Assembly: GCA_963744545.1 (NCBI GenBank)
Contig: CAVUUH010000036.1
Span: forward strand, 141,880-205,879
Reading direction: 5' to 3'
Source of the DNA: an uncultured delta proteobacterium
Lineage (GTDB): Bacteria; Desulfobacterota; Binatia; Binatales; Binataceae
Length of the DNA stretch: 64,000 nt
The notes beneath the pieces were generated by a model. The model did not search any database. It saw only the letters and a program-made list of their open reading frames with translations, and was not told the DNA's origin. Numbering within the stretch: the first letter of the stretch is position 1; every line of letters starts with the position of its first letter. Below are positions 20,506 through 44,845 of the stretch, piece after piece. The position numbers were made by a program, and so were the translations under genes.

Positions 20506-20573
20506 GCGTTCAGAATAGCGCGCGAGCGCGGCCAATCAACCAGTGATAAAGTGAAAAATGAAAAATGAAAAAA

Positions 20574-23500: not shown

Positions 23501-25058
23501 AGTTGCCGGCTTCGGGAATCGTTCCGCCCGAAGTGATGACAGACAACCGCGCAGAACGGCGCGGGCGGACACGGGCGTTGACTCGATCGAAGAAAATTTT
23601 CGGCGCTGCGCCCATAATTTTTTCAGGTAAATCATTGGCCAACTGCTCAAGGAGATGACGCAGTTTGGTGGCGTCGAGATGGCTGAAGTTGTACGCGTTG
23701 CGAATGACACGCAGCAGATCGGTCTCGGAGATTTCGTCTTCCTCGGCGGCGATCGCGACGATTTGCTGCGCCACGATATCGACGCATCCCATCGGGATTT
23801 CAACTTCGTCGAGGTGGCCGTGACGAATTGCGCGCACTGCCGCACCGCATTCGAGCAAATCGTCGGTAGTGAGCGCGAAGAAACGGCCCTTGGGCGTAGC
23901 GCCGAGGCTGTGTCCCGATCGGCCGATGCGCTGAATCGCGGCCGAAATGGATTTGGGCGTATCGAGCTGGCATACGAGGTCGACTGCGCCAACATCGATG
24001 CCGAGTTCGAGCGACGCGGTCGCGACGATCGCCTTCAGCTCTCCGCGCTTGAGACGTTGCTCGGCGAGCAGACGCTCGGCGCGTGCGAGGCTGCCATGAT
24101 GCGCCATCACGGCGTCGGTGCCGAGGCGCTTCTGCAGGTTGATCGCGACGCGCTCGGCGTGGCGGCGGCTGAGCGTGAAGACGAGCGTCGTGCGATGCTC
24201 GCCGATGAGTCGCGCGACCTCGTCGTACATCGCCTCCCAATGCGGATGGGTCGCGAGCGGGCCGAGTTCGGGGCCGGGCGCGATGACCTGGAGATCCATT
24301 TCACGGACGCGATCGTCAGCGCGAACTATTTTGATTGGACGCGGCGTGCGAGCGCCGTCGCGAGTCACGTCGTAGCCGGCGAGGAATCCGGCGAGCTTTT
24401 CGATTGGATTCAGCGTCGCCGACAAGCCGATTCGATTCGGGCGCGCGTTGCCGCGACTGGTCACGAAGCGTTCGAGGCGTTCGAGCGTCAGCGCGAGATG
24501 CGCACCGCGCTTGTTGCCGGCGAGTGCGTGGAGTTCATCGACGATCACGTGGCGGACGGCGGCGAGCTTCTCGCGAAACTTCGGCGAGGTCAGCAGGATG
24601 AACAGCGACTCGGGCGTCGTGACGAGAATATGCGGCGGCCGACGGAGCATCGCAGTGCGCTCGCTGGCGGAGGTGTCACCCGTGCGAAGCCCGGCGCGGA
24701 TGCGTGAAAGATCGAGTCCCGATTCGGCGCCGACATCGCTCACGCCGTGGAGCGGTTCTTCGAGATTCAGGCGGATGTCGTTGGCAAGCGCCTTGAGCGG
24801 AGAAACGTAGAGGACGGAGACTTCGTCGCGGAGAAGATTGTTCGCCGCATCAAGCACGAGGCCGTTGATCGCCCACATGAAAGCCGCGAGCGTCTTGCCG
24901 CTGCCGGTTGGTGCGCAGAGGAGGACGTCGAAGCCGGGGGCATCGTTGGCGGCACCGATGATGGGCCATCCGAGTTCCTGCGCGCGCGAGGGCGCATCGA
25001 AGCGCCGATTGAACCAGGCGCGAACTGCAGGATGGAAGTCGTCGAGGGCGGTGGGCAT
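20574..25058 (-). CDS. lhr: Lhr-family ATP-dependent helicase (DEAD/DEAH box), 1494 aa
   Basis: N-terminus FHPAVRAWFNRRF…APTGSGKTLAAF and helicase motifs throughout. Intact. Confidence 0.85.
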   Translation of the reverse strand: MPTALDDFHPAVRAWFNRRFDAPSRAQELGWPIIGAANDAPGFDVLLCAPTGSGKTLAAFMWAINGLVLDAANNLLRDEVSVLYVSPLKALANDIRLNLEEPLHGVSDVGAESGLDLSRIRAGLRTGDTSASERTAMLRRPPHILVTTPESLFILLTSPKFREKLAAVRHVIVDELHALAGNKRGAHLALTLERLERFVTSRGNARPNRIGLSATLNPIEKLAGFLAGYDVTRDGARTPRPIKIVRADDRVREMDLQVIAPGPELGPLATHPHWEAMYDEVARLIGEHRTTLVFTLSRRHAERVAINLQKRLGTDAVMAHHGSLARAERLLAEQRLKRGELKAIVATASLELGIDVGAVDLVCQLDTPKSISAAIQRIGRSGHSLGATPKGRFFALTTDDLLECGAAVRAIRHGHLDEVEIPMGCVDIVAQQIVAIAAEEDEISETDLLRVIRNAYNFSHLDATKLRHLLEQLANDLPEKIMGAAPKIFFDRVNARVRPRRSARLSVITSGGTIPEAGNYDVVIESEGRKIGDVEEDFAQESSRGDVFSLGSMPWQIQRSSRGRLMVEAAPGMAPTLPFWLTEAGGRSPAMSAEISDLRHEIWDRIERKQSPEEWLMSECAMSERAATQAADYVRRGVEALGAIPDEKTVVIERFFDGLGGTQLVIHTPFGIRLNRGLGLAIRKRLCQSFDFEIQASAIDDGVLLALNSRHSFPLDTLFSMLKARNARDVLVQALLAAPMFEVRFRHVATRALAIMRSSRGKKVPAWIQRLRSQELLSSIFPGQQACFENRPGAIELPDHFVIEETIRECLEESTDLPRIVQLLEGIESGAIRTVTVDAIAPSVFAHRLLLAWDYSFLDDGERANRRSRTVTMNRGMAEDVFRKEDLSDLLSADAVESVVAEVTGRAAGRKPRSRDELFELIRAHGSLTLAEVEERLGEGARAMISELDAEGRIARVSLNGESPERMIASEDKPLFDAAYAGGSSDGDAARVELVRRALKTCGPTTAAEIAARLHLIQSDIDQNLAALEGQGAIFRGHFTRSDTIQWCDRYNLERIHRMTLARVRAEIEPCADHEYAAFRLKWMHVGSTELPADQTGVAAVLDQLSGIAATPENWEHAILPARIEGYRPEMLDLVCMSGQMKWLAEPGEAVEGARPANTPSRVTFVARKASLFAQGDASATEDAKEQAVLTALGAAGAQYLDEVAERANISERDALSALWRMAAAGRVSNDNFAPLRMFSDDRAAERALESVARRPTTRHDAAVRARLKSSLAGRWSLIRAAETPVVGADETRDLALKLLERHGILAREMLGIESTHISWNEISFALRRLEYGGAIRRGWFVRSLSGEQYALPEAVEMLHAARNLIAAREKPIALSAIDPANPYGAVIPGCGIAREAGNVIVVRAGRVIAGLQGRAMITGEGEVDDESFSAAVAALMTLKPRITIDSIDGVPALESPRVGILAAMRFHSDGRSLVFDGLHGPAPARASRRRSSN

Positions 25059-25162
25059 TTATAAAACTATAGTCACTGCGGGGCGACCTTACAAAAAAAG
25101 ATGCTGACAATGGGGTGGCAGGAGATCTTAAGGGCATCGCGAGAGTGCCACGCAACCCAACC

Positions 25163-25187
25163 CCTAACCCCTTCCCGAGCGAGAAGG
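25163..25187. terminator. hairpin ccccttc ccgagcga gaagggg in the lhr-upstream / DUF1111-downstream spacer
   Basis: An inverted repeat flanked by T- and A-runs on opposite sides. Confidence 0.35.
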
Positions 25188-25246
25188 GGAACCAAAAAAT
25201 CAATTTGGATGTGGGCGCGCGAGGGCGAATGGGCCCTCGCGTGATG

Positions 25247-26671
25247 TTAGAGGGTGTTCAGGAAATTCACCACATCCTGCTGCTGCGAGGTAGATAGGGC
25301 CTGGAAGGCTTGCGAGGCGGGTTTGCCCTGGCCGTCGTGCAGCGAGATTGCGGTGGGCAAATCGAGGGCGCGGCCGTCGTGCAGGAAGATTGATTTGGCG
25401 CGCAATCCCCAGAGCGGCGCCGTGCGCATCATCGTCGGACCCGCGGCGCCTGACGTTATCCCGTCGCCGAGCGCGCCCATGTCGTGCAGCAGGAAATCGC
25501 CGTACGGATGGAAGGTCTGCTGCGCCAGCGCGTGGTTGACGGTCGAGCTCATCGGAGTGCCTCCCGTGGCAGCCGGAATGAACGATGCGGGATTCGAGGC
25601 GGTAGTCAGCGACGGCGCGTGGCATCCGGCGCATCCCAACTGCGAGAACATAAACTTGCCTCGGAGCGCCGACGAGTTTTGCGGAATCGTGGGCGGCGGC
25701 GCGAGCGCGCGCATGAAATCGGAGAAGCGGTCGATGTCGGCGCGACCGTCGGGATCAATCGTATCTTCGATGCCGGTGTCTTCGAGCGTGATGCCGTACT
25801 GAGTCACGCCAATCGCACAACTGCTGGTGTCGGTCGGGTTGTCGGGATTCGTGATTCCCATTTCGTTGAGATAGGCGTCGCCGGCAAACCCGCGCAGCAA
25901 CGCATGATCGTTTTTCCATCCGAAACGTCCGACGTGCGCGGTATTCAGAAAATTCTCGGTGACCATCTTGACGGTGCCGCGGATTGACTGAGGCTCGTTT
26001 TGCGCCAACTGGATCAACGTTTGATCCGGTACCGCCTCGACCAGTCCGTCGCCGAACAAGGCAAGCGCGGCGCGTCCCGCAACGCAATCGCCGCCGCTGG
26101 TGAAATTCGCACTGGTTGGATCGCATGTGGGCAGCTCGGTGCTGAACGTGGTCTTCATCGCCTCCTCCTGCTGGCATGCGGAGAGTTGGCATCCGGGGAC
26201 AGTTATCTGGCATCCGAGCGGCTCGGCCGTCACACCACCGGCGAAAATTGGCGTGGCGCCCTGCGACTGCGGGCCGTTGCGGAGCATATTATCCACCGCG
26301 AAGATGTGGACCGGGCCGGGGTCGGTGTTGTTGCGGACGCGAATCTCGTTGATGAAGAGACCGCCGCCGCCGGTCGCAGGCTGCGAATGGCATCCGGTGC
26401 ACGTGGTGCCATTGAAGAGCGGTCCCAGTTGCGGCATCTCTTCGATTTCCTTGAAGTTGATCTGGCCGGTGGCGAAGGTCGACAGGTCGGCGAGGCTATT
26501 GGCGACCGCCGGCAGCGGCGCGCCGAAACCGTCGAGGTTGATGGGATAGCTGGGCTGCGACTGAGTCGAGGCGCGGCGATTGGCGGGGCCGGCGTATGCG
26601 TTGTGAGGCGTCGCGAGCGCGAGCGCGCAGAGAATTAATCCCACAGATCCGAGTGCGGTCTGAGTCTTCAC
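25247..26671 (-). CDS. di-haem c-type oxidoreductase of the DUF1111 family (COG3488 'thiol oxidoreductase')
   Basis: Signal peptide and two CxxCH motifs (CTGCH, CAGCH) with family-typical spacing. Confidence 0.65.
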   Translation of the reverse strand: MKTQTALGSVGLILCALALATPHNAYAGPANRRASTQSQPSYPINLDGFGAPLPAVANSLADLSTFATGQINFKEIEEMPQLGPLFNGTTCTGCHSQPATGGGGLFINEIRVRNNTDPGPVHIFAVDNMLRNGPQSQGATPIFAGGVTAEPLGCQITVPGCQLSACQQEEAMKTTFSTELPTCDPTSANFTSGGDCVAGRAALALFGDGLVEAVPDQTLIQLAQNEPQSIRGTVKMVTENFLNTAHVGRFGWKNDHALLRGFAGDAYLNEMGITNPDNPTDTSSCAIGVTQYGITLEDTGIEDTIDPDGRADIDRFSDFMRALAPPPTIPQNSSALRGKFMFSQLGCAGCHAPSLTTASNPASFIPAATGGTPMSSTVNHALAQQTFHPYGDFLLHDMGALGDGITSGAAGPTMMRTAPLWGLRAKSIFLHDGRALDLPTAISLHDGQGKPASQAFQALSTSQQQDVVNFLNTL

Positions 26672-27144
26672 AATCCTGACTCCTTCGCCCGGGCGCGCGA
26701 TTTTCGAAATCGCGAGCGAGGCTGTTCCGCGGCGTCCGCGCAGGTGACATCACGCGGGCACACATTCACACCTAACTGTCGGTCGCGCTTTGAGGATTTT
26801 CCGGGCGTCGCGAGCTCCCCCGAGCAGTCACTTCATCGAAAACGGGTATGTCGTTGGCTCATTGGAGGTCGTTGCGACCTCGGAAAAGATACAGATGTGG
26901 ATGAACCGAGAGAGTACTTAGCAATGTCGCTATGTTAATACAAGACTATCAGAAATAACGTTGTTCTCTCTTTTATTGTCACATCTATGCAAACAAATGC
27001 TGTCATGGACTTTAAATGCGGAATTCCTGCTGATTGATGCGCGCTCGAACTCCTGGAGCGCCACGACAGGAAGTCATCGCGAAGATGCCATGAGCAAGAC
27101 CGGGAGGTGGGGGACGTCTTCACCGACGGCGAGCAACGCGACCA

Positions 27145-28407
27145 TTGCGAGTGAGAATGGGCCAGCCGCGACGCACGACGCCATCAATTTCGGCCTCATC
27201 GCCACGCGAGCACGCTCTCTTGACCCTCGGGCAGCACTACCCGGCTTCTGCTAGAATCGCGCGCGTGCAATCGCTCGACGACTACATCCCGCGCCCAGGC
27301 CTCTCCGTTCCCATCGTTACGATTCTCGACGCTCGCGGCCGCGTCCTCGAAGACCAGCAGCGCGCCGTCGTTCGCTTCGCGCTGCAGGACGGCGCCGGCG
27401 CCGACATCATCTTCGCCGCAGGCACCACCGGCGAATGGGATCGTATCGACAACTCACGCCGCCAGGCCGTCGCGCGAATCGCGATCGAGGAATGCCGCCG
27501 CGTGCGCGAGTCCGTCGCCAAGAAGATCGAAGCATGGGCCGGCATCACCGCGCACACCCGCGCCGACACGCTCGACAACCTCACTCATGCGCTCCACGCT
27601 GGCGCCGACGCAGTGGTGGTCGCGCCGCTGTCGATCAAGGACGTCGAGAATCCAGCCGAATTCGTTGAGCGCGACATCGGCGCCGTATTCAATCGCGCGG
27701 GCCGGATGCTCCCGCTGTTTCTCTACGACAACGCCGACATCGCCGCTCCCGGCAAGGCGCCGCATCTGCATACGCGCGACGTCAAGGCGATGGCGCGGCT
27801 GCCGTACGTGCGCGGAATAAAAGTCACCGCGAGCAAGACCGTCATTGGCAACTACACGCGCGCCGCGTCGCATTTCAAAGCGGGTCACGAGTTCGCGATC
27901 TATGCCGGCAACGCGTACCTCATCTTCGATTTGTTCGCCCCGCCTGAAGGCGTCGGCGATCGCATGCGCCATTACTGGAATCGTTACCTGACTCAGCGCA
28001 CGCGCCCTTACGGCGTCGTCGCGGGGCCTGCCAATGCGATGCCGCGCGAATGGCAGCGCGGATGGCAGGTCTGCCGTTCAGGCGACATCGAGCTGATGCG
28101 CTTGTATGCTGACGCGATCGAGGAATTTCGCATCACCTGTACGTTCAAGCGCGGCGCCAAGTCCTATCGCCCGACGATTGCGACGATCAAGGCGTCGCTC
28201 AAGGAAATGGGCGTCATCGAGAGCGACGCAGTCGGCGCGGGCACGCCGCCGATGAGCGATACCGAGCGCCGCGAATTCTCGACGCGATTCGCCGCACTAC
28301 GCGATCGCAACGCCGAGATGCTTGAGCGCGGATGGGTCAGCGAATACGATTCGCCCGCCGGCCTCGCGCCGGCAACCGAACGAAAATCTGCGGGGCGCAA
28401 TGGCTGA
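27145..28407 (+). CDS. dihydrodipicolinate synthase/N-acetylneuraminate lyase family protein; the true start is probably internal
   Basis: …PIVTILDARGRVLEDQQRAVVRFALQDGAGADIIFAAGTTGEW… resembles the DapA/NAL family. Confidence 0.55.
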   Translation: MRVRMGQPRRTTPSISASSPREHALLTLGQHYPASARIARVQSLDDYIPRPGLSVPIVTILDARGRVLEDQQRAVVRFALQDGAGADIIFAAGTTGEWDRIDNSRRQAVARIAIEECRRVRESVAKKIEAWAGITAHTRADTLDNLTHALHAGADAVVVAPLSIKDVENPAEFVERDIGAVFNRAGRMLPLFLYDNADIAAPGKAPHLHTRDVKAMARLPYVRGIKVTASKTVIGNYTRAASHFKAGHEFAIYAGNAYLIFDLFAPPEGVGDRMRHYWNRYLTQRTRPYGVVAGPANAMPREWQRGWQVCRSGDIELMRLYADAIEEFRITCTFKRGAKSYRPTIATIKASLKEMGVIESDAVGAGTPPMSDTERREFSTRFAALRDRNAEMLERGWVSEYDSPAGLAPATERKSAGRNG

Positions 28408-30055
28408 AGAAAAACTCGACGTCGTCGGATGCGGCAGCATGGTCGTCGACCTGTTCTACCGCACGCCGCGGATCATCCGCGCCGACGAAAAGATTTTACT
28501 GCGCGCGCATACCGCGAGCGCCGCGATTGAACGCACCCAGGTCGGCGGCCTCGTCCTGAATCACGTCGGATGGGGCCGAATCCTCGGCCTTAAGACCGGC
28601 ATCTTCGGCAAGATGGGCGACGACCGCAACGGCGAGTTCTTGCGCGACGGGATGGACCGCCTCGGGATCCGACATCACCTGACCTTCGACGGCACCGCGA
28701 CCGCGTTCGCAACCATCTTCGTCGACGCCGCCGGCGATCGCGCTATCTACATGGCGCGCGGCGCGACCGGCGAGCTCACTCCCGCCGAGGTCCGCAATCG
28801 TCACGGCGCATTCATCCGCCGCGCCAATCTCGTCTCAACCGAAATTTCGCAGCTCCCGCTCCGCACCGTGATCGCGATCCTGCTTTTCGCGCGTACCCAT
28901 TCGATTCCGACGATTCTCGACGTCGACGTGCCACCCTCCGACGCCATCGGATCGCTCGGCACGCGCGCCGAACTCGAGCGCGCATTGAAACTCGCGACCT
29001 TCCTCAAGCCCTCGAAGGCTGCAGCGCGCGAGATCGCCGGCAACGGCCGCGATCCTCTGAAAATTGCCGACGCAATTCGCGCGAAGTACGGCAATCGCGC
29101 CGTCATCATCACTGAGGGCGACAAGGGATGCTCGATCGCGGCGCGCGACACTTCGGTTCGCGTGCCCGCGTTCAAGGTCAAGCAGGTCGACTCGACCGGG
29201 GCCGGCGACGCGTTCCTCGCCGGCATCTGCGCCGGCCTCCGCCTCGGCCTGCCATGGGAAAAGATCGGACGTCTCGCCAATGCCGCGGGCGCTGTCGCCG
29301 TCACGCGACTCGGTGCGTTCCCGTCAGGCTTCGAAGTGCGCGAGGAAATTCTCGACGTCTACGCGGAGCCGCTCGCGCTGCCGACTCCGCGCCTCGACGC
29401 CGAGCCGCGCGAGGCCGCGATCGGCGACTCGACCGGCGAGGTAGGGAAATTCTTCGACCTCGCACTCACCGAGCTCGCCGCGCTGCGCGGCGGCTTGAAC
29501 ATCGCGGCCATCTCGCGCACCGTCGAGATAATTCGCACCGCGCTCGGCCGCGGCGGCCGCGTGCACGTGACCGGAGTCGGCAAGCCCGAGCACGTCGCGC
29601 GCTACGCCGCCAGCGTGTTCTGCTCGGTCGGCACGCCCGCGACTTTTCTGCACGCGACCGAGACCCTGCACGGCAGCCTCGGCCAGGTGCATCCGCGCGA
29701 CATCGTAATCGCGATTTCCAACAGCGGCAGCACCGACGAATTGCTCTCGACCGCTACCGCCATCCGCGAGCAAGGCGCGCAGCTGATCGCAATCACCGGC
29801 AACAAAGACTCGAGCCTCGCGCAACTCGCCGACCTGGTGATCCACGTCCCCGTCCCCAACGAAGGCGGCGGGCTCGGCCTCGCCCCGCGCATCAGCGTGC
29901 TCGGCGAAGTCTTCGTGCTCGCGGGACTGTCCGTCGCGTTGGAACTAGCCCACGGCCTGACGGTCGAGGAATATTCCCGATGGCACAGAGCAGGCGCAAT
30001 CGGCGAAGCCGCCCGCCGCCTCGCCGAAACCCGGACCACCAGCCGCCGCGCGTAA
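28400..30055 (+). CDS. bifunctional PfkB-family sugar kinase / SIS (sugar isomerase, KpsF/GutQ-like) domain protein
   Basis: Ribokinase-like N-half (…DSTGAGDAF…) and SIS C-half (…GVGKPEHVARY…ISNSGSTDELL…). The start overlaps the stop of the upstream gene (ATGGCTGA). Confidence 0.65.
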   Translation: MAEEKLDVVGCGSMVVDLFYRTPRIIRADEKILLRAHTASAAIERTQVGGLVLNHVGWGRILGLKTGIFGKMGDDRNGEFLRDGMDRLGIRHHLTFDGTATAFATIFVDAAGDRAIYMARGATGELTPAEVRNRHGAFIRRANLVSTEISQLPLRTVIAILLFARTHSIPTILDVDVPPSDAIGSLGTRAELERALKLATFLKPSKAAAREIAGNGRDPLKIADAIRAKYGNRAVIITEGDKGCSIAARDTSVRVPAFKVKQVDSTGAGDAFLAGICAGLRLGLPWEKIGRLANAAGAVAVTRLGAFPSGFEVREEILDVYAEPLALPTPRLDAEPREAAIGDSTGEVGKFFDLALTELAALRGGLNIAAISRTVEIIRTALGRGGRVHVTGVGKPEHVARYAASVFCSVGTPATFLHATETLHGSLGQVHPRDIVIAISNSGSTDELLSTATAIREQGAQLIAITGNKDSSLAQLADLVIHVPVPNEGGGLGLAPRISVLGEVFVLAGLSVALELAHGLTVEEYSRWHRAGAIGEAARRLAETRTTSRRA

Positions 30056-30164
30056 CGCCTGCAGCGCACGGCGCTCGAAGAGAGCTAACACTTTGCGACT
30101 TCATCGTGGACCGCTTGAAATGTTAGCGTCGAGTTTTCAAGCCTGAGAAGGAAGTTACGCGAGC

Positions 30165-31148
30165 ATGAAAGTCCTGGTCACGGGAAGTTCCGGCCATCTC
30201 GGCGAGGCGCTCGTCCGTACTTTGAGGGACTTGCAGCACGAGGTTGTCGGCCTCGACATCCTCGAGTCGCCGTTCACGACTTGCATCGGCTCGATCAACG
30301 ATCGCGAATGCGTCAGGCGCTGCATGACCGGCGTGCAAGCAGTGTTTCACGCAGCCACGCTGCACAAGCCTCATGTCGCCACACACAGCACTCAGGACTT
30401 CGTCGACACCAATATCACCGGCACGCTCAATCTGCTCGAAGCGGCAGTGACGACAGGTGTCGAGTCGTTTGTCTTCACTAGCTCAACCAGCGTGCTTGGC
30501 GACGCGCTGGTGCCGCCGGCCGGCGCACCGGCCGCATGGGTGACCGAGGACATCACGCCAATTCCCAAGAACATCTACGGGGTCAGCAAGTCGGCGGCAG
30601 AGGATCTTTGCCAGTTGTTTCATCGAAACAAAGGTCTTGCATGCGTCGTGCTGAGAACGTCGCGATTTTTCCCGGAAGACGACGACAACAAGGCTGTGCA
30701 GGACGCTTACGCGGACGACAACATCAAGCTGAACGAATATCTCTACCGGCGAGTGGACCTGGAAGACGTCGTGAGCGCGCACTTGTTAGCCGCTAAGTGC
30801 GCACCGGCGATCGGTTTCCGCCGGTACATCATCAGTGCTACGACGCCCTTCTCTCCCGCCGATTTACCGGAATTGCGTGTTGATGCTGCGCAGGTGGTGC
30901 GGCGTTACTTTCCTGACTATGAGGCGGAATATACGCGGCGAGCCTGGAGAATGGTTCCAGGCATCGACCGCGTTTACGTCAACGATCGGGCTCGAAAGGA
31001 ACTCGGTTGGCAACCGCGATATAGTTTCAAGTTCATCATTGATCGTCTGCGGGCGGGCGAGGACATCAGGAGTCCACTGGCCCGGTTGGTTGGGTCAAAG
31101 GGATATCACACCGAGAAGTTTGCCGAAGGGCCCTATCCAGTGGAATGA
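30165..31148 (+). CDS. NAD-dependent epimerase/dehydratase (extended SDR) family protein
   Basis: MKVLVTGSSGHLGEAL… Rossmann N-terminus; YxxxK present (YGVSK). Confidence 0.75.
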   Translation: MKVLVTGSSGHLGEALVRTLRDLQHEVVGLDILESPFTTCIGSINDRECVRRCMTGVQAVFHAATLHKPHVATHSTQDFVDTNITGTLNLLEAAVTTGVESFVFTSSTSVLGDALVPPAGAPAAWVTEDITPIPKNIYGVSKSAAEDLCQLFHRNKGLACVVLRTSRFFPEDDDNKAVQDAYADDNIKLNEYLYRRVDLEDVVSAHLLAAKCAPAIGFRRYIISATTPFSPADLPELRVDAAQVVRRYFPDYEAEYTRRAWRMVPGIDRVYVNDRARKELGWQPRYSFKFIIDRLRAGEDIRSPLARLVGSKGYHTEKFAEGPYPVE

Positions 31149-31195
31149 AGGCCGGTTCATCCACGCTGGAACTTTCGCCTCGGCCTGCGTAGCCC

Positions 31196-31900
31196 CTACT
31201 TTCGCGACGCGGGTTTGAGTGCGACGGACGCTTCCGACGTCAACAGGAGGAAGGTCATCGATTCCTGGAGGTACAGGCCCACGTTTTTGTCGTCGTGGCG
31301 CAGATACCCAATCGAGACGTCCTGGCCGAGATGCAACTCGAAGTCGCCGCCGCGTGTCGTCAACACGAACGCTCCAGCGATCGCAGGCGCGAAGATGATC
31401 TCGTCGTTGACCAGCCGCTGGATGTGCTGGATAACGGGATAGCCGTGATCGCTGGCCTCGCTCAGCGCCGTGTACGCATCCGCGCCCATCACCACCGAAT
31501 ACGGCCCGTTGACGCCCGCGAGGCGCAGTTGGCTCAGCGCCTCGGCAACGGCGTCCGGATAATGAGCCGGGTCGCCGGGCAGCGCCGCGATTTTGTTGCT
31601 GGTCCCTTGCCGAATGCCTTCGATTCCGGCGGCGGCGTATCCTTCGAAGATCGCGCGGTCTTCGGCGAACGCTATCCGCTTCGCCGCATCTTTCAGCGGT
31701 TGCCAGTCCGAATCATTCGCGCCGCGATCGACGTCATCGATCGCCTGCCGATCCAGTTGGAATGGAGCGCGGATCGGATGTGTCAGGTTGCGGCGGCGGG
31801 CGGGGTCAGGCCGGGTTCGGCCGCCGTAGGGGGCCGTCCACCCCAACATGAACACCGGCCTGCGGAACCAATGGAATGGCCGGCGTTCAGGAATTCCGGG
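31196..31900 (-). pseudogene. family-1 encapsulin (Linocin M18) shell protein, 5'-truncated remnant lacking about 25 N-terminal residues
   Basis: The C-terminal ~220 aa align closely to M. tuberculosis Cfp29/encapsulin (…DDVDRGANDSDWQPLKDAAKRIAFAEDRAIFEGYAAAGIEGIR…GPYSVVMGADAYTALSEASDHGYPV…TTRGGDFELHLGQDVSIGYL…). Homology stops where the tcuA stop (31929) is reached. Confidence 0.75.
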
Positions 31901-31928
31901 CCCGGCCCTGCGCGCCGTCCCGGAATGG

Positions 31929-33431
31929 CTAGCCGGGGGCGACCTGCTTGCCGGCGCTGGTGCCGGCGATCTTGCCGAACACCGAGCCCGACACCAGGCC
32001 CGGTGCCGCCCGGGTAGTTGTGATAGAACAGCCCGCCGACCAGCTCGCCGGCCGCATAGAGCCCGGCGATCGGCTTCTGCGCGGTGTCGAGCACGCGGCC
32101 GTCGGTGTCGATCCGCACCCCGCCAAAGGTGAAGGTGACGCCGCAGGTCGTGCAGATACGCCTCGTAGGGCGGCTTTTCGAGCGGCATCGCCCAGTTGGT
32201 CTTGTCGATCGCGAGGCCCTTGGTGGTGCGCCCGTCCTTGACCGTCGGGTTGTAGGGGATGTCGCGTTGGACCGCCGCGTTGTAGTCGGCGATCGTCTTG
32301 AGGAACGCCGCTTTGTCGACCGGCGCGTACTCGGCCATCTTGTCGGCCAGCTCCTCGATCGTGTCGGCGGTCACCTTGGTCACCTGGCGGATGCGGTATT
32401 CGTCGCGCTGCAGATGCACGACCTGCTGGTCGAAGATCTGCCAGGCGAACTGGTGCGGCTGGTTCAGGATCTCGCGGCCGTATTTGGCGTAGGTGTAGTT
32501 GCGGAAATCGGCGCCCTCGTCGCAGAACCGCTCGCCGTCGGCGTTGACCATGATGGCGAACGGGTAGGAGTGCTTCTGGAAATTGTCGCCGACCGCGAGG
32601 TCGCCGAATTCCGGCGCGTTGTAGTCCCAGCCGACCGCATGGCAGCCCGACCAGTTGCCGTACGGCATCGCGCCGATCTCCAGCGCCATCTTGATGCCGT
32701 CGCCGGTGTTGAAGCGGGTGCCGCGCACCTTGGCGAGGTCCCAGCCGGGGCCGAGATAGCGGGTGCGCATCTCGGCATTGGCCTCGAACCCGCCGCAGGC
32801 CAGCACCACCGCCTTGGCCGCGGATCTCGGTGGTCTTGCCCTCGACATTGGCGACGACGCCGTGGACGCCGTCATCGTCGGCGATCAGCTTCTCGCCGCG
32901 CGCCTCATAGGCGACCTCGATGCCGCGGTCCTCGGCCGATTTGAACAGGCCCTCGACCAGCCCCGGCCCGCCGCCCCAGGCTTCCAGCGCGAGCCCGCCC
33001 CAGAACACGAACTTGCCGTCGTGCTTGAAGGCCTGGCGCGAATACATCGGCGCGAAGCGGATGCCCTTGCCGCGCATCCACAGCAGCGTCTCCTGGCTCT
33101 AGGTGATCAGCAGCTCGGCCATGTCGGGGTTCGACTGCGGTAGTCGGTCAGCCGGCCGAGATCGTCGTAATACTTGTCCTGCGTGTAGGTGCCGAAATCG
33201 CTGGTCGCCATCTCGGTCTCGGTGAGGTCGCAGAGCTTCAGCAGATCGTCGACGCCGTTATAGACAAAGCGCAGCGCGCCCGGCGGTGTAGCGGCTGTTG
33301 CCGCCGCGCTCGTCGAACGGCGCCGCTTCCAGCACCAGCACCCGCGCGCCCTTCTCCTGCGCCGCCAGCGCCGCGCACATGCCGGCATTCCCCGCGCCGA
33401 CCACGACGACATCGTATTCGCCCGAAATCAT
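31929..33431 (-). pseudogene. tcuA: tricarballylate dehydrogenase TcuA-like FAD flavoprotein with at least 5 frameshifts
   Basis: The N-terminus is MISGEYDVVVVGAGNAGMCAALAAQEKG. Successive segments fall in different frames (…GALRFVYNGVDDLL…; …RGIRFAPMYSRQAFKHDGKFVFWGG…; …VVLACGGFEANAEMRTRYLGPGWDLAKVRGTRFNTGDGIKMALE…; …IDTDGRVLDTAQKPIAGLYAAGELVGGLFYHNYPGGTG…; …GLVSGSVFGKIAGTSAGKQVAPG*). Confidence 0.75.
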
Positions 33432-33811
33432 CCCGCTTCCTCCGCTTTGGCTCTCGCCGCGAACGAGTAGCGCGGCGAGCGCGGCCGAGGCAAGCCCCGC
33501 CCCGGCTACGGCGCGATCCGCACCAGCACTCGCGAGTTTTCGCAGATGCGCGGGTTGACGGTGCCGTCCGAGAACGTGACGGTCTCGACATCCGGCTCGG
33601 TGGTGGCGAGAACCAATGTTCGGTTGTCCGCGGACAGGGTGCCCGCCAGACGCACCAGGTCGATCGTGAAGGTCTGGCCGGTCCGAGGCCCGGTCAGCAC
33701 CGTCCCGGCGACATTGGCCGCCCTGGTTTTTACCTGGTTGTTGGGGCCGACCGAACCGGCGCGGCCCGGGCACGGGCTTGCGCGAGCCCGGGGCGGTGCA
33801 CAGCTTAGCGG

Positions 33812-34598
33812 CATGACGCTCTCGGCGACCGATCTGCAGACCCTCGCGGCCGCGGTGCGGCGGCTCGAAAGCCCAAGTTTTGCCGGGCGCCTGGCGGCAT
33901 TCGCCGGCAAGCCCGTCGCCTGGGTCGGACGGGCCTTGCCGGCGGCGGCCTCGGCGGTCGTGGCGCGGGCCGCGACGCGGGCGCTCGACCGTGCGCTCGA
34001 GGTCGCGCTCTACAGCCTGCGGACGCGGCGATTCGCCGGCGGGCGCCGGGTTCACTCCGCCCTCGCGTCGGCCTCGGGGGCAGTCGGCGGCGCCTTCGGG
34101 CTGCCGGCGCTGGCGCTCGAGCTGCCGGTGTCGACGACGATCATATTGCGGGCGATCGCGGCGATCGCCAGCGAAGAAGGCGAGGACCTCGGCGATCCGC
34201 GCACCGGGCTCGCCTGCCTGGAGGTGTTCGCGCTCGGCGGCGCGGCGCCCGGCGCCGAGGCGGCGGAGACCAGCTATTTCGCGGTTCGCGGCCTGTTGAC
34301 GCGAGCCCTCGCCGAGGCCGCCGACATCGTCGTCGACAAGGGTATGGTGCGCCAGGGCGCGCCGCTGCTGGCGCGTTTTTTCGGGCCTCATCGCCGCGCG
34401 TTTCGGCGTCGTCGTCTCCAAAAGGCGGCAGCGCAGGCGGTCGCGGTCGTCGGCGCGTTCGGCGGGGCGGCGATCAATCTGTTGTTCATCGAGCATTTCC
34501 AGGAGCTGGCGCGCGGCCACTTCACGATGCGCCGGCTCGAACGCGCCTACGGCGCCGAGACCGTGCGCGCCGAGTACGACAGGCTCAGATCGGCATAA
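33812..34598 (+). CDS. EcsC-family protein
   Basis: MTLSATDLQTLAAAVRRLESPSF…GLPALALELPVSTTIILRAIAAIASEEGEDL…VFALGG…ETSYFAVRG…FQELARGHFTMRRLERAYG matches EcsC. Confidence 0.7.
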
Positions 34599-34778
34599 AG
34601 ACACACGTCACCGCAGAGGGCGCGGCGGATGCGCAGAGGGCGCCGATGCCTCCGCGTCCTCTGCGAAGCCTGGCGGCGCGTGCGGTAAGGCGTTATCTTT
34701 GCTCGCGATGACGACCACCGCCTTCTTCGGAGCAGAGCACCGGACCGTCGCGATGATCGCGGCAGCGCATCTGCGCCG

Positions 34779-35381
34779 ATGACCGATCCCCGCATCGCCG
34801 AGTTGCTGGCGGCGCGGCTGTGCCACGAGCTGGTCGGGCCGATCGGCGCGATCGGCAACGGTGTCGAATTGCTGACCGAGGACGGCGCCGATTTCGCGGC
34901 CGACGCCGTCGCGCTGATCGGCGACAGCGCCCGCCAGGCGGCAAGCCGGCTGCAGTTCTACCGCTTCGCGTACGGCTTCGACCGCGCCCACGGCGCCGCC
35001 GGGCCGGTGCCATACGAACTGGCCGCCGCGTTCTTTCAGGGGACGCGGGTCGCCTGCAATTACCATGACGGTGTGCGGGCGCTGCCGCTCGACCAGCAGA
35101 AGCTCGCCTGCAACATGCTGCTGTGCGCCGCCGAGGCGTTGCCGCGCGGCGGGAAATTGCTGGTCGCGGCGAGCGCCGCCGGTCCGCAGATCGAGGCGGG
35201 CGGCGACGGCGCCGCGCTGTCGCCGGAAACGCGCGCCGGGCTGGCGCTGGCAACGCCGTTCGGCGAGCTCAGCTCGCGCACCGTGCAGGCGTATTTCACC
35301 GGCCTGCTGGCGCAAGCCATCGGCCGCCGCATCGCGGTCGAGGCGCAGACCGGGTGTCTGCGCCTGACCCTCAGCCCTTGA
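34779..35381 (+). CDS. chpT: ChpT-family histidine phosphotransferase
   Basis: LAARLCHELVGPIGAIGNGVELL HPT-like helix and C-terminal HATPase-like remnant, as in alphaproteobacterial ChpT. Confidence 0.65.
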   Translation: MTDPRIAELLAARLCHELVGPIGAIGNGVELLTEDGADFAADAVALIGDSARQAASRLQFYRFAYGFDRAHGAAGPVPYELAAAFFQGTRVACNYHDGVRALPLDQQKLACNMLLCAAEALPRGGKLLVAASAAGPQIEAGGDGAALSPETRAGLALATPFGELSSRTVQAYFTGLLAQAIGRRIAVEAQTGCLRLTLSP

Positions 35382-36885
35382 GTACGAGCGTTATATCGGT
35401 GCCGCCGGCGCCGTCGCGCGACAGCGCGAACGCGGAGGCGCCGGGGTAGGTCGTCGACACGTGCAATTGCGTCACCGGCGTGCCGGCGTTGGTCAGGCTC
35501 AGCACCCCGTAGGAATAGCTGTAGCCGGTCGCCCGCACCCGCGCGAGGTCGATCGTATCGCCGGGCTGGAAGCCGAAGACCGCACCGGCAAATTGGCGTG
35601 GCCGGTCGAGCTTCAGCGTCTCGTAGGCGGCGGTGAAGACGACGCCGACGCCGCTGCCGACCGGGCCGCGGAATTCTGCCGAGGCGTAGCTGCCGATGTA
35701 GATCCCGATATAGGCGCTGGGGGCGACCGCCCGGAACACCCAGGCGGCCCCCGGATCGATACTGACGGCGCCGAAATTGGTGAAGCTGACGCCGAGCCAA
35801 CTAAGCGTGCCCGGATTGTACCCCGCCGCCAGCTCCAGGGTGCTGCCGTAGCCGGCGACGACGCCGACGAACACCGCCCCCGGGTCGACGACCAAGAGGT
35901 CGGCGCTGCTGGCGAACGACAGCGCAGTCCCGCCGTAGCCGATGACCGTGCCGGCATTGGTGACGACCGCGCCGGCGCCGGGCGCCGAGATGCCGACATA
36001 GCCCATGATCGTCCCGTAATTGACGACCGCGGGATAGGCCGCGCCCGACGAGGCGTTCATGACGACGCCCGTCTGGGTGCCCGCGATCAGCCCGTAGCCG
36101 CCGTTCACCAGGGCGCCGCCAGGCGAGACCGAGACAGCGGTGTAGAGGGTGGCCTCGATTGTCCCGTAATTGTTTAGATTGGCGCCGCCGACGCCCTGGA
36201 CGAGGACGCCCGAGGAGGCGATCAGACCGTAATTGGCGGCGGTCGCGAAACTGACCAGCCCGGCATAGATCATGCCCGAATTGACGAGGCTCGTGCCGGA
36301 GATGTTGTCCGACGTCGCGATCGAGCCCGAGTTGGAGAGGGTTCGGGCCGAGAAGAAGCTCGGATAGGAGCCGCTGCTGACCGCGATCGCGCCGGAATTG
36401 GTCAGCGCCTCGACCCGGATTCCATATGCCGTGCTGTCGATCGCGCCGCTGTTGGTCACCGTGGCGACCGCGACGCCGCCGGTCAACATGCCGAAATTCA
36501 CCAATGCGCTGGTCGGACCCGGCAGTGAAACGCCGTAATTGCCGCCGGTGACAACGCCGTAATTGACCACGCTGCCGGCGATGCCGCCGGTTGCGACACC
36601 GACGCTGCCGCCCGTGATCACGCCGCCGCCGCCGTTGACGACGAGCCCGCCCGCCGCCAGGTCGACACCGACGCCGGATGCGCCGTTGCCCTCGACCGTG
36701 CCCAGATTGGTGACGGTCCATTGCGCTATCGCGGTGCCGAAAACCGCTGTACCGATATTGACGACGGGGATCCCGGCGGCGATCGTCGTCGGGTTCTGCG
36801 TCGCTGGGTAGTTCAGAACGATGCCCGCCACCCGCCGCTCCGCGATGTTACGGTTCCCCTCGGACCGTCCCGCCAATCGCCTCAT
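35371..36885 (-). CDS. Gly-rich repeat protein of about 504 aa with ~20-residue periodic repeats (…NYGTI…, …NSGAI…, …NAGTV…) suggesting a β-helix, and no obvious signal peptide
   Basis: An intact long ORF in a 70% GC background with internal periodicity. It is convergent with chpT and overlaps it by 10 nt. Confidence 0.4.
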   Translation of the reverse strand: MRRLAGRSEGNRNIAERRVAGIVLNYPATQNPTTIAAGIPVVNIGTAVFGTAIAQWTVTNLGTVEGNGASGVGVDLAAGGLVVNGGGGVITGGSVGVATGGIAGSVVNYGVVTGGNYGVSLPGPTSALVNFGMLTGGVAVATVTNSGAIDSTAYGIRVEALTNSGAIAVSSGSYPSFFSARTLSNSGSIATSDNISGTSLVNSGMIYAGLVSFATAANYGLIASSGVLVQGVGGANLNNYGTIEATLYTAVSVSPGGALVNGGYGLIAGTQTGVVMNASSGAAYPAVVNYGTIMGYVGISAPGAGAVVTNAGTVIGYGGTALSFASSADLLVVDPGAVFVGVVAGYGSTLELAAGYNPGTLSWLGVSFTNFGAVSIDPGAAWVFRAVAPSAYIGIYIGSYASAEFRGPVGSGVGVVFTAAYETLKLDRPRQFAGAVFGFQPGDTIDLARVRATGYSYSYGVLSLTNAGTPVTQLHVSTTYPGASAFALSRDGAGGTDITLVLKG

Positions 36886-36921
36886 AGTAAAGGATTCGGG
36901 GTAGCTTCCAATTAACGGGGA

Positions 36922-38168
36922 TCAGGCGGGCGCCCGAGCAGCTGCTGGCGGAGGTCCGGTTCGCGCAGCAGCTGGCCCACCGGTGCAGGCGACGCGTTGA
37001 CGGCGTCGGCATATCTCTTCGGGCCGCCAAAGCGCTCCAGCGTTTCCGGCGGCACAAATTTGATCAGCAGATCGCGGTGCCCGGCGGCACCCGACGAAAT
37101 GCACCATCAGCATGTCGTGGTCGCGAGCAGCAGCATCGACAGCGCCGCGGACGGCTTCGTAGGGCACGACCGGCGGCCCGCTCGAGCCGCCCCGCTCCAT
37201 CGCGATCTCGAGGATGTCGTCGGCCGGGATCTGCACCGTCGTCGGCGTCTCGCGCAGGCGGTTGCCGAGCAGCGGGCGCAATTCGGCGGCGATTGTCTTG
37301 GTCGTGGCGATCAGCGCCTGCACCCGCGCCGGATCGTATTCCTCGAGGGTCCGCACGACGGCCGGATACAGCGCCTGCCGGGCTTCCATGCCGAATTCGA
37401 AGCCCTTGGCGCGGATCCGGCCGACCAGGTCGTTGCGGCCGGCGAGCAGGCCGAAGCGCGGGCCTTGCGTGCCGTATTTGTCGAGCCCGGTGGCGCCGAT
37501 ATCGCCACCGAGCTGCAGCATGCGCGGCTGCCCGAAAGCGGCGGGGCCGACCCGCGCGCCGCCGGCGTCGTCGACATAGACGAGCGCGCCCTTGTCGTGC
37601 GCCAGGCGGACGATCGTGCGGATTGCCTCGAACGGCATCAGATCGTAGGTGACGGCGAGCCGGGTCAGCACGACGAGCGCCACCTTTCGCTCGCTCGCGA
37701 TCGCGTCGCGGAAGGCGGCGAGGCCGGCGGTGTCGATAAAGCGCGTCTGGGCCTGCGCGGCGGCACGCACGACCGAGGGATGGCTGTGCGATTCCGACAC
37801 CCCGATCACGACCTCGCCCGGCTTGACCAAAGTCAGATGCGTCGCCATCGTCGCCCCGGTCAGGCGGTTGAACACGGCAACGTCGTCGCGGTCGGGCGAC
37901 CCGCCCAGATGTTCGAGGGTCAGCGTTTTCAGCCGCTCCAGCACAGGGCCGGGGCGATCTCGTCGTCGGCGAACTCCAGCTCCGCCGGCGCCAGCGGCAG
38001 CCCATGCTCGAGGCCGGTGAAGATGTAGACGGCCTCGGGCCCGCTCTCACGGATCAGCCCCCAAGCCCGCTGCAGTTTGCGGAAATCATCCTCGGTGCCC
38101 TTCAGGATGTCGCCGCGCGCATAGGACAGGCTCGGCGCATGGGTGTTGCCGAAGCGATCGACGGTCAT
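36922..38168 (-). pseudogene. SelA-like PLP-dependent enzyme family protein with frameshifts near 37940 and 37080
   Basis: The N-terminal piece MTVDRFGNTHAPSLSYARGDILKGTEDDFRKLQRAWGLIRESGPEAVYIFTGLEHG is in one frame. The core is in another (…VVIGVSESHSHPSVVRAA…GGDIGATGLDKYGTQGPRFGLLAGRNDLVGRIRAKGFEFGMEA…), resembling the SelA-type GDKLLGGPQAG segment. Confidence 0.4.
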
Positions 38169-38282
38169 GCGAACTCTCCCTATGCGGTCATCGCGAGCGC
38201 AGCGAAGCAATCCCGAAGATCAGAGTACCGCCTGATCGAGATTGCTTCGCCGCTGCGCGCCTCGCAATGGCACGGTGTGCCC

Positions 38283-39273
38283 CTACGCCACGTCGCGCTG
38301 CAGTTTCGGGTCGTAATTGGCGTCGTACCAGTAGTCCTGCCACTGGGCGTAGGTAATCGGCGCCCAGCGCGGCGGGTCGCCGGGACCGGTGCAGGTCGGC
38401 AGGCACTCGATCATCTGGTCGAAGCGGGGCCCGAAGAAGAACGGGATCGCGTAGCGGTCGCGCCCGACCGGCGGCACGGCGCGGTGCGGCGTCGATATGA
38501 GGCGGCCGTTGGTCCAGCGATGCAGCATGTCGCCCGAATTGACCGCGAACGAACCCGGGATAAAGGGCACGTCGGCCCAGTCCCCCGATGGCAGGCGTAC
38601 CTGCAGTCCCGGCACCTCGGTCTGCGCCAGAAAGGTCATGAAGTTGCTGTCGGTGTGCGGGGCGATGCCGAATTGGTTGGGCTCGGCGGTGACCGGCGGG
38701 TAATGCGACAGGCGCAACGTGAACTGGCTGTCGGTGAAGGCCTCGTCGAACCAGTCGGGCGGCGAGGTCGAGCGCTGCCGCGACGACCGGCAGAAAGCGC
38801 CGGGCAAACCGTCCATCGCCTCGGCATAGTCGAGCACATAGGCGCGGAAGCCGGGCAGATCGCCCTCCGCCGGCCACAAATTGGGGCCGACAAAGCGGCG
38901 CCCCGACAGGCAGCAGCGGGTCGTCGGGCGGCCGCTCGCGCTTGATGAAAAAGGCCTCGTTGAGGTCGCCCTTGTCGTTGTCGTTGATCTGCGAGGTGCG
39001 CACCGCGTAGCGGCCCATCACCATGTAGCCGTTGTTGTGCTCGTTGAGCTTCAGGGCGAGCTTCTTGTCCATCGGCAACAGGTGAAAGCGCCTCGCCTCG
39101 GCGAAGGTGCGCGCGATCAGCGGCTGCGGCACATCGTGCCCGGTCAGCACGAAGAATCCGACCGTGGTCAGCGCCTCATGCACCGCCCGCGCGGTCGCCG
39201 CCAGAGCGCCCGCCCGGCCGCGCAGCCAGTCGCCGGCATCGATGACGGGAATGGTTGTGGTCATGCTCGACAC
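38283..39273 (-). pseudogene. 2OG-Fe(II) oxygenase (isopenicillin-N-synthase-like) with an apparent frameshift near 38880
   Basis: N-half MSSMTTTIPVIDAGDWLRGRAGALAATARAVHEALTTVGFFVLTGHDVP… is in one frame. C-half …LRLSHYPPV…HTDSNFMTFLAQ…VNSGDMLHRWTNGRLISTPHRAV… is in another. Confidence 0.65.
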
Positions 39274-40128
39274 CTAGCGCGCGATCTGGTGAATCAGCTC
39301 CGCCCAGCGGTCGAGTCGCGGCAGTATTTCGTCGCGCGCCGCCGAGGGCAGCATCACCACGACGCGCGCGATCCCCAGATCGCGGTAACGCGCGAGGCGG
39401 TCGGGTTCCGGAGTGACGCCGAACAGGGTGATCGGCACCGATGCCGGATCGCGGCCGGCTTCCGCCAGCATCTGCCGGAATTTGGGAAGGTATTCGTCGA
39501 TGTCGCCGTAGGGGGCGCGGCCGGTGAACGGCCCCCAGCCGTCGCCGTAGCGGACAGCGCGGCGCGCGGCATGCGGGAAGGCGCCGCCGACGAGGATCGG
39601 CGGGTGCGGCGTCTGCACCGGCTTCGGCCACGCCTTCATCGCCGGGAAATCGACCATTTCGCCGTGATATTCGGCCGTCTCCTTGGTCCAGATTTCCTTC
39701 ATCGCCTCGATGCGTTCGCGCATCAGTTTGAAGCGGCTTTTGAACTCGGTGCCGTGATCGGCCATCTCCTCGGCGTTCCAGCCGCCGCCGACGCCGAACA
39801 GGAAGCGCCCTCCCGAGACCTGGTCGAGCGAGGCCACCAGCTTCGCCGTCTGGATCGGGTCGCGCTGCTGCACCAGGCAGACGCCGGTCGCCAGCCGCAA
39901 TTTCTCGGTCGCGACCGCGGCCGCGGTCAGGCTGACGAATGGGTCCATCGCCTCGTAATAGACCTTCGGCAATTCGCCGCCGCCCGGCCACGGCGAGGCG
40001 CGCGACACCGGGATGTGCGAGTGCTCGGGCGCCCAGACCGACTCGAACCCGCGCGCCTCCAACGCGCGGGCGAGGTCGACCGCCGAGATCGCATAATCGG
40101 TGAAGAACATCAAAGCGCCGAAATCCAT
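39274..40128 (-). CDS. LLM-class (luciferase-like) flavin/F420-dependent oxidoreductase
   Basis: MDFGALMFFTDY…VWAPEHSHIP…RFLFGVGGGWN…. Confidence 0.7.
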   Translation of the reverse strand: MDFGALMFFTDYAISAVDLARALEARGFESVWAPEHSHIPVSRASPWPGGGELPKVYYEAMDPFVSLTAAAVATEKLRLATGVCLVQQRDPIQTAKLVASLDQVSGGRFLFGVGGGWNAEEMADHGTEFKSRFKLMRERIEAMKEIWTKETAEYHGEMVDFPAMKAWPKPVQTPHPPILVGGAFPHAARRAVRYGDGWGPFTGRAPYGDIDEYLPKFRQMLAEAGRDPASVPITLFGVTPEPDRLARYRDLGIARVVVMLPSAARDEILPRLDRWAELIHQIAR

Positions 40129-41445: not shown

Positions 41446-41746
41446 GGATCACTCACAGAGCCCCCTCCCCGGCCTTCTCCCCGCGTGCGGGAAGAGGGAG
41501 GTCAGTGCTATCATCATCCGGTCAGGGAGAGCGCACGATGCAGCAGGGCCGCGGAGGGTTGGGGAGCCGCAAGCACGGGGTCTCCGGGCATGCCTCGCAG
41601 AGCCCGCGCCTGCGGCTGGCGAAGAAGCTGGCCGCCGAGCGCGGCGAGTATGACAGCGGCAAGCCGCGCCGCCCGCGGCGGCTCGCCTTCGCGACCGTGC
41701 GCGAGGCCTTGCGCGGCGAGGCAAAACCCCGAGGAGGAGGATTTCG

Positions 41747-44833: not shown

Positions 44834-44845
44834 GGGATCCTCCTC

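Follow-up and report, generated by a model that had tools for sequence, protein, structure and literature searches.

Long-read metagenome assemblers produce contigs that join phyla, recognisable by sudden shifts in GC content, coverage and gene taxonomy, and long-read assemblies carry indels without read support that corrupt open reading frames (ORFs) (10.1101/2025.04.22.649783). The stretch of DNA analysed here, 64 kb of the 225,089-bp contig CAVUUH010000036.1 and termed the window throughout, contains a discontinuity inside the gene of a family 1 encapsulin shell protein, with DNA of Candidatus Binatus on its left and alphaproteobacterial DNA on its right. With high probability this discontinuity is an inter-phylum assembly chimera, joined at 31773/31774 and originating in long-read metagenome assembly. 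Like the multi-phylum chimeric contigs of Trigodet et al. (10.1101/2025.04.22.649783), it combines ORF-corrupting indels with a sudden change of GC content and taxonomy at one nucleotide position; unlike those chimeras, which were diagnosed by read clipping and coverage, it was recognised by sequence comparison, and whereas PacBio HiFi reads were used in that study, the error profile of the window looks like that of lower-accuracy long reads.

The locus also resembles a horizontally acquired genomic island, in that a deviant block of tens of kilobases has a best-hit taxon different from that of its neighbour. Unlike an island, the window is devoid of tRNA genes, flanking direct repeats and, among the tested ORFs, integrases, and no return to host sequence was found; bar indels, the deviant block is ~100% identical to a donor-type contig that stands on its own, and the host gene is interrupted at an arbitrary point.

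Two further systems are represented in part, one on each side of the join. The DyP-type peroxidase is the classic cargo of family 1 encapsulins. The Binatus side of the window ends in the shell gene. Where the arrangement is intact, as in a long Binatus contig (L087, below) and in a RefSeq Binatus metagenome-assembled genome (MAG), a DyP-type peroxidase gene precedes the shell gene. The window has no DyP gene and only codon 78 onward of the shell gene, because the sequence switches there to another organism. To the right of the join, a 200-residue HPTransfase (PF10090) protein recalls the CckA–ChpT–CtrA phosphorelay of Alphaproteobacteria; a ChpT-like gene was noted in the window, in which CckA and CtrA were not searched for, and this predicted phosphotransferase serves here as a taxonomic marker.

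The breakpoint in the encapsulin gene

The features that define the join are as follows.

30165–31148, plus strand: NAD-dependent epimerase/dehydratase gene (epimerase), an intact native Binatus gene, convergent with that of encapsulin
31196–31773, minus strand: 3′ part of the family 1 encapsulin shell gene, comprising the C-terminal 191 codons and the stop; the join removes 232 nt at the 5′ end
31773–31774: breakpoint (the probable chimeric join), mid-gene on the Binatus side and, on the alphaproteobacterial side, apparently between tcuA and an ABC-permease gene
31196–32875, minus strand: artefactual 559-aa ORF spanning the join, with FAD_binding_2 at its N terminus and Linocin_M18 at its C terminus

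The Logan contig L001 (SRR28012342) carries the epimerase gene followed by a convergent, complete 269-aa Linocin_M18 encapsulin gene, the product of which is WP_422292006.1 of Candidatus Binatus sp., and then by a further upstream gene. It is 100% identical to the window over positions 30053–31773 and has zero similarity to it past 31773. The ENA contig L087, a 249,913-bp Binatus contig, aligns with the window at 99.4% identity over 10574–31771, where the alignment ends; past that point it supplies the missing part of the encapsulin gene and then genes for a DyP-type peroxidase, an LLM-class oxidoreductase and an enoyl-CoA hydratase (ECH). An exact-sequence look-up likewise placed the exact epimerase protein next to encapsulin on independent Logan contigs. 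Because independent contigs match the window up to 31773 (L001) and 31771 (L087), the 47-bp spacer between the epimerase and encapsulin genes is native and the break lies at 31773/31774. The original prediction, made from the sequence of the window, had located the switch in that spacer (31148–31196), which misplaced it by ~580–620 bp: both contigs match past the spacer, and the break falls inside the encapsulin gene.

The window retains 578 nt at the 3′ end of the encapsulin gene, so that the first 77 codons are absent and the gene is cut at codon 78. Pfam correspondingly matched positions 78–253 of the 253-position Linocin_M18 profile in the window. A full-length Linocin_M18 domain with an adjacent cargo gene is thus not what the window holds, the domain being partial and no DyP gene being found in the window, whereas intact encapsulin is present in both L087 and L001 and the adjacent DyP gene is seen in L087. 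The 559-aa ORF is a read-through artefact over the join, and no other gene on record encodes the exact 559-aa FAD_binding_2/Linocin_M18 product. On the alphaproteobacterial side, coordinate bookkeeping against a 36-kb contig of the Joint Genome Institute (JGI) would put the break ~155 nt downstream of the tcuA stop, inside a 252-nt intergenic region between tcuA and the permease gene.

Divergence between the window and L087 climbs toward the break, from 0 mismatches per kb at 16–27 kb to a total of 53 over the final 770 nt. Since L087 diverges in this way while L001 stays at 100% over 30053–31773, the join appears to sit at a strain-variable region, a plausible spot for an assembly path to break.

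Composition along the window

Sliding-window GC profiling and likelihood change-point analysis over the 64-kb window gave four GC blocks (A, B, C and D), not two, the third of which is divided here into C1 and C2.

1–31773: block A, Candidatus Binatus (phylum Binatota) chromosomal DNA, ~61% GC, high-quality consensus
31774–45055: block B, alphaproteobacterial DNA, ~70% GC, indel-rich consensus
45056–51430: block C1, ~60% GC, same alphaproteobacterial genome, with CMAS methyltransferase, MBOAT and aldo/keto reductase genes
51431–57300: block C2, putative extra segment of ~5.9 kb, ~59% GC, with an outlying oligonucleotide signature and a frameshifted minus-strand Mrr-nuclease/STAND-NTPase gene
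57301–64000: block D, alphaproteobacterial DNA, ~70% GC, B-like signature, heavily frameshifted consensus

The GC fraction is 0.610 over positions 1–27100, 0.638 over 27101–31790, 0.696 over 31791–45055, 0.601 in block C (45.06–57.30 kb) and 0.702 in block D (57.30–64.0 kb). The maximum-likelihood change point, at ~31790, lies less than 20 nt from the homology break at 31773, and base composition jumps at the join from 0.61–0.64 to 0.70 GC, as in chimeric contigs. The sharp change in composition and taxonomy that had been predicted is therefore real and lies near 31–32 kb, but it is neither located at 31.2 kb nor a single simple step. The predicted contrast of 58–62% against 68–72% GC holds at this first switch, but the right side falls to ~60% at 45056–57300 and returns to ~70% at 57301–64000.

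The three switches in GC content differ in nature: that at 31.77 kb is an artefact, that at 45.05 kb a genuine alphaproteobacterial feature, and that at 57.3 kb the edge of a putative extra segment. The switch between blocks B and C at ~45.05 kb is regarded as genuine because an independent JGI contig of the same strain carries the same gene spacing across it. Moreover, since the alphaproteobacterial DNA includes the 60%-GC block at 45–57 kb, the left edge of which recurs in an independent assembly, GC content by itself is no marker of a boundary between foreign and native DNA. The phylum-level discontinuity divides A from B, C and D together, and not ‘low GC’ from ‘high GC’. The window illustrates how GC shifts alone mislead, the apparent boundary in the 47-bp spacer being native sequence.

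Tetranucleotide (TETRA) profiles of blocks B and D correlate with r = 0.77–0.78, those of A with B or D at 0.41–0.59, those within A at 0.56–0.67, and those of C2 with every other block at 0.33 or less. TETRA was dropped as primary evidence, as it gave no clean separation of A from B and D at these lengths; of the two composition checks proposed with the original prediction, GC content thus yielded a sharp step and tetranucleotide frequency did not cleanly split the two sides.

Taxonomy of the two sides

Proteins encoded in block A are exact or 88–97% matches to those of Candidatus Binatus sp., a genus placed by taxonomy look-up in the phylum Candidatus Binatota. The large subunit of acetolactate synthase (ALS) and an Lhr/AlkZ helicase are exact RefSeq proteins of Candidatus Binatus sp. 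(WP_422293165.1 and WP_422292653.1), and the aconitase is 88–92% identical to Candidatus Binatus sp. proteins and 75–79% identical to Binataceae proteins. At the DNA level, block A is matched at 99.4–100% identity by three independent assemblies (L001, L087 and L088), two of which (L001 and L087) extend past the break and complete the encapsulin gene. L088 is 99.97% identical to the window over 18789–27502, with 3 mismatches and 0 gaps across 8.7 kb, and L087 over 16–27 kb shows 0 mismatches and 1 homopolymer indel. The block A consensus is nearly error-free.

Separate taxonomic placement of the right side led to the Alphaproteobacteria, through the relatives of ChpT and of the CMAS-type methyltransferase, and bore out the expectation that the two halves would differ.

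34779–35381, plus strand: ChpT-type histidine phosphotransferase gene, intact, 200 aa, PF10090 HPTransfase at 5.8e-26

The HPTransfase match scored 91.1 bits against a Pfam gathering cut-off of 22.9. Among the best 80 relatives listed from 185,579 species-representative genomes, which are 45–60% identical and include Stellaceae and Rhodospirillales, 79 carry titles of alphaproteobacterial or unclassified Proteobacteria/Pseudomonadota MAGs and one is labelled Thiohalocapsa; together with the domain match, this upholds the reading of the gene as ChpT. The odd record (L036, JBLMXS010000119.1, a ‘Thiohalocapsa sp.’ MAG) is the sole clearly non-alphaproteobacterial one among the 80 listed loci, and the presence of ChpT in a gammaproteobacterial MAG suggests bin contamination there. 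The intact CMAS-type methyltransferase of block C has named relatives in Alphaproteobacteria only, in Limobrevibacterium (81%), Acetobacteraceae MAGs (82%), and Rhodospirillales and Chelatococcus (70–75%).

A comparison within the same strain was made from JGI gene tables (without DNA), exact-protein look-ups and two cluster representatives. Exact copies of the ChpT and CMAS proteins are encoded on a 36,170-bp contig of JGI sample 3300050821, which represents the same strain with its genes intact. Its gene table matches the gene order of the window from tcuA through MBOAT, and the spacing from the molybdopterin oxidoreductase start (44833) to the CMAS gene (45383–46681) is identical in both. 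To the left of tcuA the gene table lists four ABC-transporter genes, a GMC oxidoreductase, MazE, a CBS protein and GPP34, and no encapsulin. The junction between A and B is accordingly contradicted from both sides, because L001 and L087 on one side and the JGI contig on the other each continue differently. The block D gene order was found intact on a 9,404-bp contig of the same JGI sample, and the assignment of block D is also based on comparison with L089.

Two other lines were tried and set aside. A homologue search with tcuA, the homologues of which are annotated as tricarballylate dehydrogenase, returned matches of ~75% identity in several phyla and did not return the intact 498-aa JGI protein; the contig L006 shares tcuA only (91.5%), in a different gene context, and was not used as junction evidence.

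Adjoining chpT, a gene at 35371–36831 on the minus strand encodes a 486-aa glycine/valine-rich repetitive protein, which recurs at 98–99% identity in three other metagenome contigs and in which no Pfam domain was found.

Indels to the right of the join

Frame switches were counted with a codon-phase hidden Markov model based on GC3 periodicity, by which block C is poorly modelled. Same-strand switches amount to 0.16 per kb in block A, 0.90 in B and 1.79 in D. Two genes to the right of the join are affected as follows.

31929–33431, minus strand: tcuA-like FAD-dependent dehydrogenase gene, split over at least four frame segments; 498 aa and intact on the JGI contig
33546–34598, plus strand: EcsC-family gene, frame open, with compensated +1/−1 indels at 34382 and 34417

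Genes that are intact in the JGI sample and frame-split or reduced to partial domains in the window encode the tcuA product (498 aa), an unnamed protein (417 aa), a 2OG dioxygenase (326 aa), an SDR protein (270 aa), an isochorismatase (253 aa), a molybdopterin oxidoreductase (679 aa), an MBOAT protein (520 aa), a DUF3108 protein (272 aa), an aminotransferase (433 aa) and a nitroreductase (215 aa). Within block B, 6 of the 13 genes are frame-broken. The original prediction, that nearly every sizeable gene on this side is frameshifted, thus captured the many genes broken relative to their intact JGI versions but went too far: the genes for ChpT, the 486-aa protein, a 284-aa LLM oxidoreductase, a 104-aa protein, CMAS, DoxX and DUF188 are open.

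Where residues can be compared with same-strain JGI proteins, substitutions are almost absent. ChpT, CMAS, and the 284-aa and 104-aa proteins are exact, and the 486-aa protein is identical at 483 of 486 residues. EcsC is identical at 339 of 350, with every difference confined to residues 279–291, a 12-residue scrambled patch lying exactly between the +1 indel at 34382 and the −1 indel at 34417, which are 35 nt apart at short G/A runs. Both indels are also evident against the 97%-identical contig L002, so that two independent short-read assemblies, JGI and L002, agree against the window. In all, ~1,856 comparable residues contain 3 substitutions and one +1/−1 indel pair, while other genes carry many frameshifts. 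Cumulative coordinate offsets against the JGI contig run 0, −7, −14, −13, −14, −15 and back to −7; as they go both up and down, insertions and deletions are both present.

In natural pseudogene decay, substitutions dominate. Substitutions at least as common as indels, the pattern of acquired DNA, were not found here. Because there are dozens of indels and almost no substitutions, on one side of the join only, the frameshifts are read as consensus errors and not as decay; as judged from sequence, the pattern indicates a low-depth long-read consensus.

Split genes also occur on sister long-read contigs. L006 (ENA ERZ25039564 contig_40827) has seryl-tRNA synthetase in pieces of 275 and 89 aa and SecD/F in pieces, and L087 (ENA ERZ25039553 contig_23759) has its epimerase split into 188 and 65 aa. 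Residual indel errors seem common across this family of assemblies.

Origin of the join

The window combines a GC step, a difference in gene-level taxonomy, and independent parent assemblies that continue past the join with sequence of their own. Consensus quality steps there as well, block A being nearly error-free and blocks B–D rich in indels with almost no substitutions. The original prediction had left open whether the right side is a large horizontally acquired block or the result of a chimeric join. The second of these is supported, and horizontal acquisition is argued against by the independent contigs, the indel pattern and the lack of integration hallmarks. An assembler, probably working on error-prone long reads, would have joined the end of well-covered Binatus sequence to poorly covered alphaproteobacterial sequence: the Binatus path may have ended in the strain-variable region and been extended into low-coverage alphaproteobacterial sequence through a chimeric read or a wrong graph traversal. 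The source data may have been of the Nanopore/Flye type. Sister assemblies of L006 and L087 use Flye-style ‘contig_N’ names, and many ChpT relatives belong to the Microflora Danica long-read MAG set, a collection of metaFlye assemblies made from Nanopore reads alone and given one round of Medaka polishing (PMC12313526). The GC changes at 45.05 and 57.3 kb would be a separate matter, reflecting native alphaproteobacterial heterogeneity, in C1 and then in the putative segment C2.

Four points weigh against this account. The difference in coverage between the two sides is deduced from consensus quality only, and the attribution to Nanopore/metaFlye from the contig naming of sister assemblies and the type of error. 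A search on one side only (Binatus) gave no shared repeat or microhomology to explain the join. Finally, the exact-sequence look-up recorded the exact full-length encapsulin only on contigs of at most 46 kb, and not on the 225,089-bp source contig of which the window covers 64 kb, but it would miss a slightly different encapsulin copy elsewhere on that contig.

An artefact introduced after assembly, in which binning, ‘genome finishing’ or database processing placed two contigs of one bin end to end with no gap, by concatenation or scaffolding, is improbable, and would in any case be a minor variant of the chimera conclusion with the same practical consequence. The perfectly clean break, without overlap or microhomology, and a side-to-side difference in quality like that between separate contigs of different depth would suit it. 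No N run or linker is present at the join, and the Binatus side stops mid-gene where other assemblies continue, which is more typical of the end of an assembly path than of a contig boundary.

Still harder to credit is a real horizontal transfer between phyla in the recent past, in which at least 32 kb of alphaproteobacterial chromosome entered a Binatus encapsulin gene and is now decaying to pseudogenes. It would accommodate the abrupt change in composition and taxonomy, the many disrupted genes on the foreign side, as expected of non-functional acquired DNA, and the presence of both parts on one deposited contig. The ‘foreign’ DNA is, however, essentially free of substitutions relative to a free-standing alphaproteobacterial contig and yet carries dozens of indels, among them the compensated +1/−1 pair of EcsC, which is incompatible with natural decay. 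The search for hallmarks of integration was equally unfavourable to it: there are no tRNA genes in the 64-kb window; repeats touching the junction do not exceed 15 nt and are chance matches only; and Pfam found no integrase, transposase or conjugation domains among the tested B–D ORFs, which carry metabolic and regulatory domains instead, the supposed insert consisting of ChpT and ordinary metabolic genes. Nor does host sequence resume beyond the block: the rest of L001 (nt 1722–3059) matches nowhere in the window, and the exact look-up gave no full-length encapsulin on the source contig, on which grounds a model of insertion with Binatus sequence resuming later was rejected. In another sample, moreover, the unbroken Binatus arrangement exists at 100% identity. 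If it were true, a transfer including chpT would be an unusually large and recent inter-phylum event without a recognisable mobile element, and its indel load would need a coincidental sequencing artefact or an unusually indel-biased decay.

That both halves belong to one organism with a strongly mosaic GC content can be dismissed almost entirely, for although GC content in the right half does alternate between 70% and 60% inside a single genome, as the JGI contig shows, so that big GC swings alone are no proof of chimerism, and the TETRA correlations of A with B or D are not far below those within A, the housekeeping genes of A (aconitase, ALS and Lhr) are exact or near-exact Binatus genes while those of B and C have alphaproteobacterial relatives, the junction is contradicted from both sides by independent assemblies, and a hairpin enriched in Binatus (below) is absent from the right half.

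The significance of the chimeric join lies in quality control and not in biology. A deposited 225-kb contig (NCBI/ENA), listed there without protein accessions, appears to fuse two phyla, any MAG that includes it is contaminated, and gene calls on its alphaproteobacterial side are corrupted by indels. Such contigs may yield false evidence of inter-phylum transfer, false pseudogenes and false fusions, as in the 559-aa FAD-oxidoreductase/encapsulin ORF and a 788-aa HlyD/kinase ORF.

Segment C2 and the 440-bp repeat

On the 9,404-bp JGI contig, the aldo/keto reductase (AKR) gene lies directly beside the DUF3108 gene, whereas in the window it lies ~6 kb further left. Because of this adjacency, C2 (~51.4–57.3 kb) is an extra segment relative to the JGI strain. 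It contains a long, heavily frameshifted gene on the minus strand, which combines an N-terminal Mrr-type nuclease (Mrr_cat) with a STAND/NACHT-like NTPase (nSTAND_NTPase5) and, from these domains, looks defence-related; PADLOC gave no system match for C2, with weak P-loop hits only for this gene. No convincing target-site duplication was found in a repeat search around C2, which may be an island specific to the strain or another artefact of assembly.

A direct repeat of ~440 bp is present in two copies, each immediately upstream of a minus-strand gene.

44848–45280, plus strand: copy 1, upstream of the molybdopterin oxidoreductase gene, straddling the GC switch between blocks B and C
51838–52280, plus strand: copy 2, upstream of the aldo/keto reductase gene, at the start of C2

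In a BLAST comparison of the window with itself, the copies are 88.9% identical over 449 nt, and both include the AT-rich element ATTATGATAATATACAATTGTTATTAAATCAAGAGGG. The repeat has no Rfam match, and Rfam found nothing in the whole window. It may represent a leader or regulatory region that was duplicated, or else a scar left by recombination.

Fused ORFs and repeats in the Binatus block

The prediction that genes to the left of the join are mostly intact fits the nearly clean consensus, but one ORF there is fused through two indels.

14283–16649, plus strand: artefactual 788-aa HlyD+APH fusion ORF, with indels at 15413 (+1) and 15682 (−1)

HlyD and APH are encoded by separate genes of 391 and 383 aa in L087 and in RefSeq Binatus. 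The pair of indels lies inside a patch of 16 clustered mismatches against L087 (15.4–15.7 kb), and the false fusion probably reflects strain variation collapsed in the consensus. A second ORF, of 577 aa (28322–30055) with PfkB-kinase and SIS domains, corresponds to two genes (225 and 269 aa) in L087, with single-base indels at 29055 and 29259; either assembly may be the correct one here.

A short hairpin recurs in the same block.

661–679, and also 1241–1259, 3110–3128 and 17032–17050: CCTCTCCC-N3-GGGAGAGG hairpin, in block A only

The motif CCTCTCCC-NNN-GGGAGAGG has 4 copies in 31.8 kb, against 1 in 1.35 Mb of other loci, nearly all of them alphaproteobacterial. Two of the four copies lie inside a 165-bp direct repeat (657–821 and 1237–1396, 86% identity). 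The hairpin had been predicted to act as a left-side terminator with a 4-nt loop; its confinement to the left block was correct, but the loop is 3 nt, the copies number four, and none of them scores in an intrinsic terminator scan. Because it has no T-tract, the hairpin looks closer to an intergenic repeat of the repetitive extragenic palindrome (REP) or miniature inverted-repeat transposable element (MITE) type than to a canonical terminator.

The Binatus block also contains an apparently complete insertion sequence (IS), bounded by 52-nt imperfect inverted repeats at 6001–6052 and 7213–7265, the ORF of which (6182–7174, minus strand) encodes a 330-aa DDE_Tnp_1/DUF772 transposase of the IS5 type.

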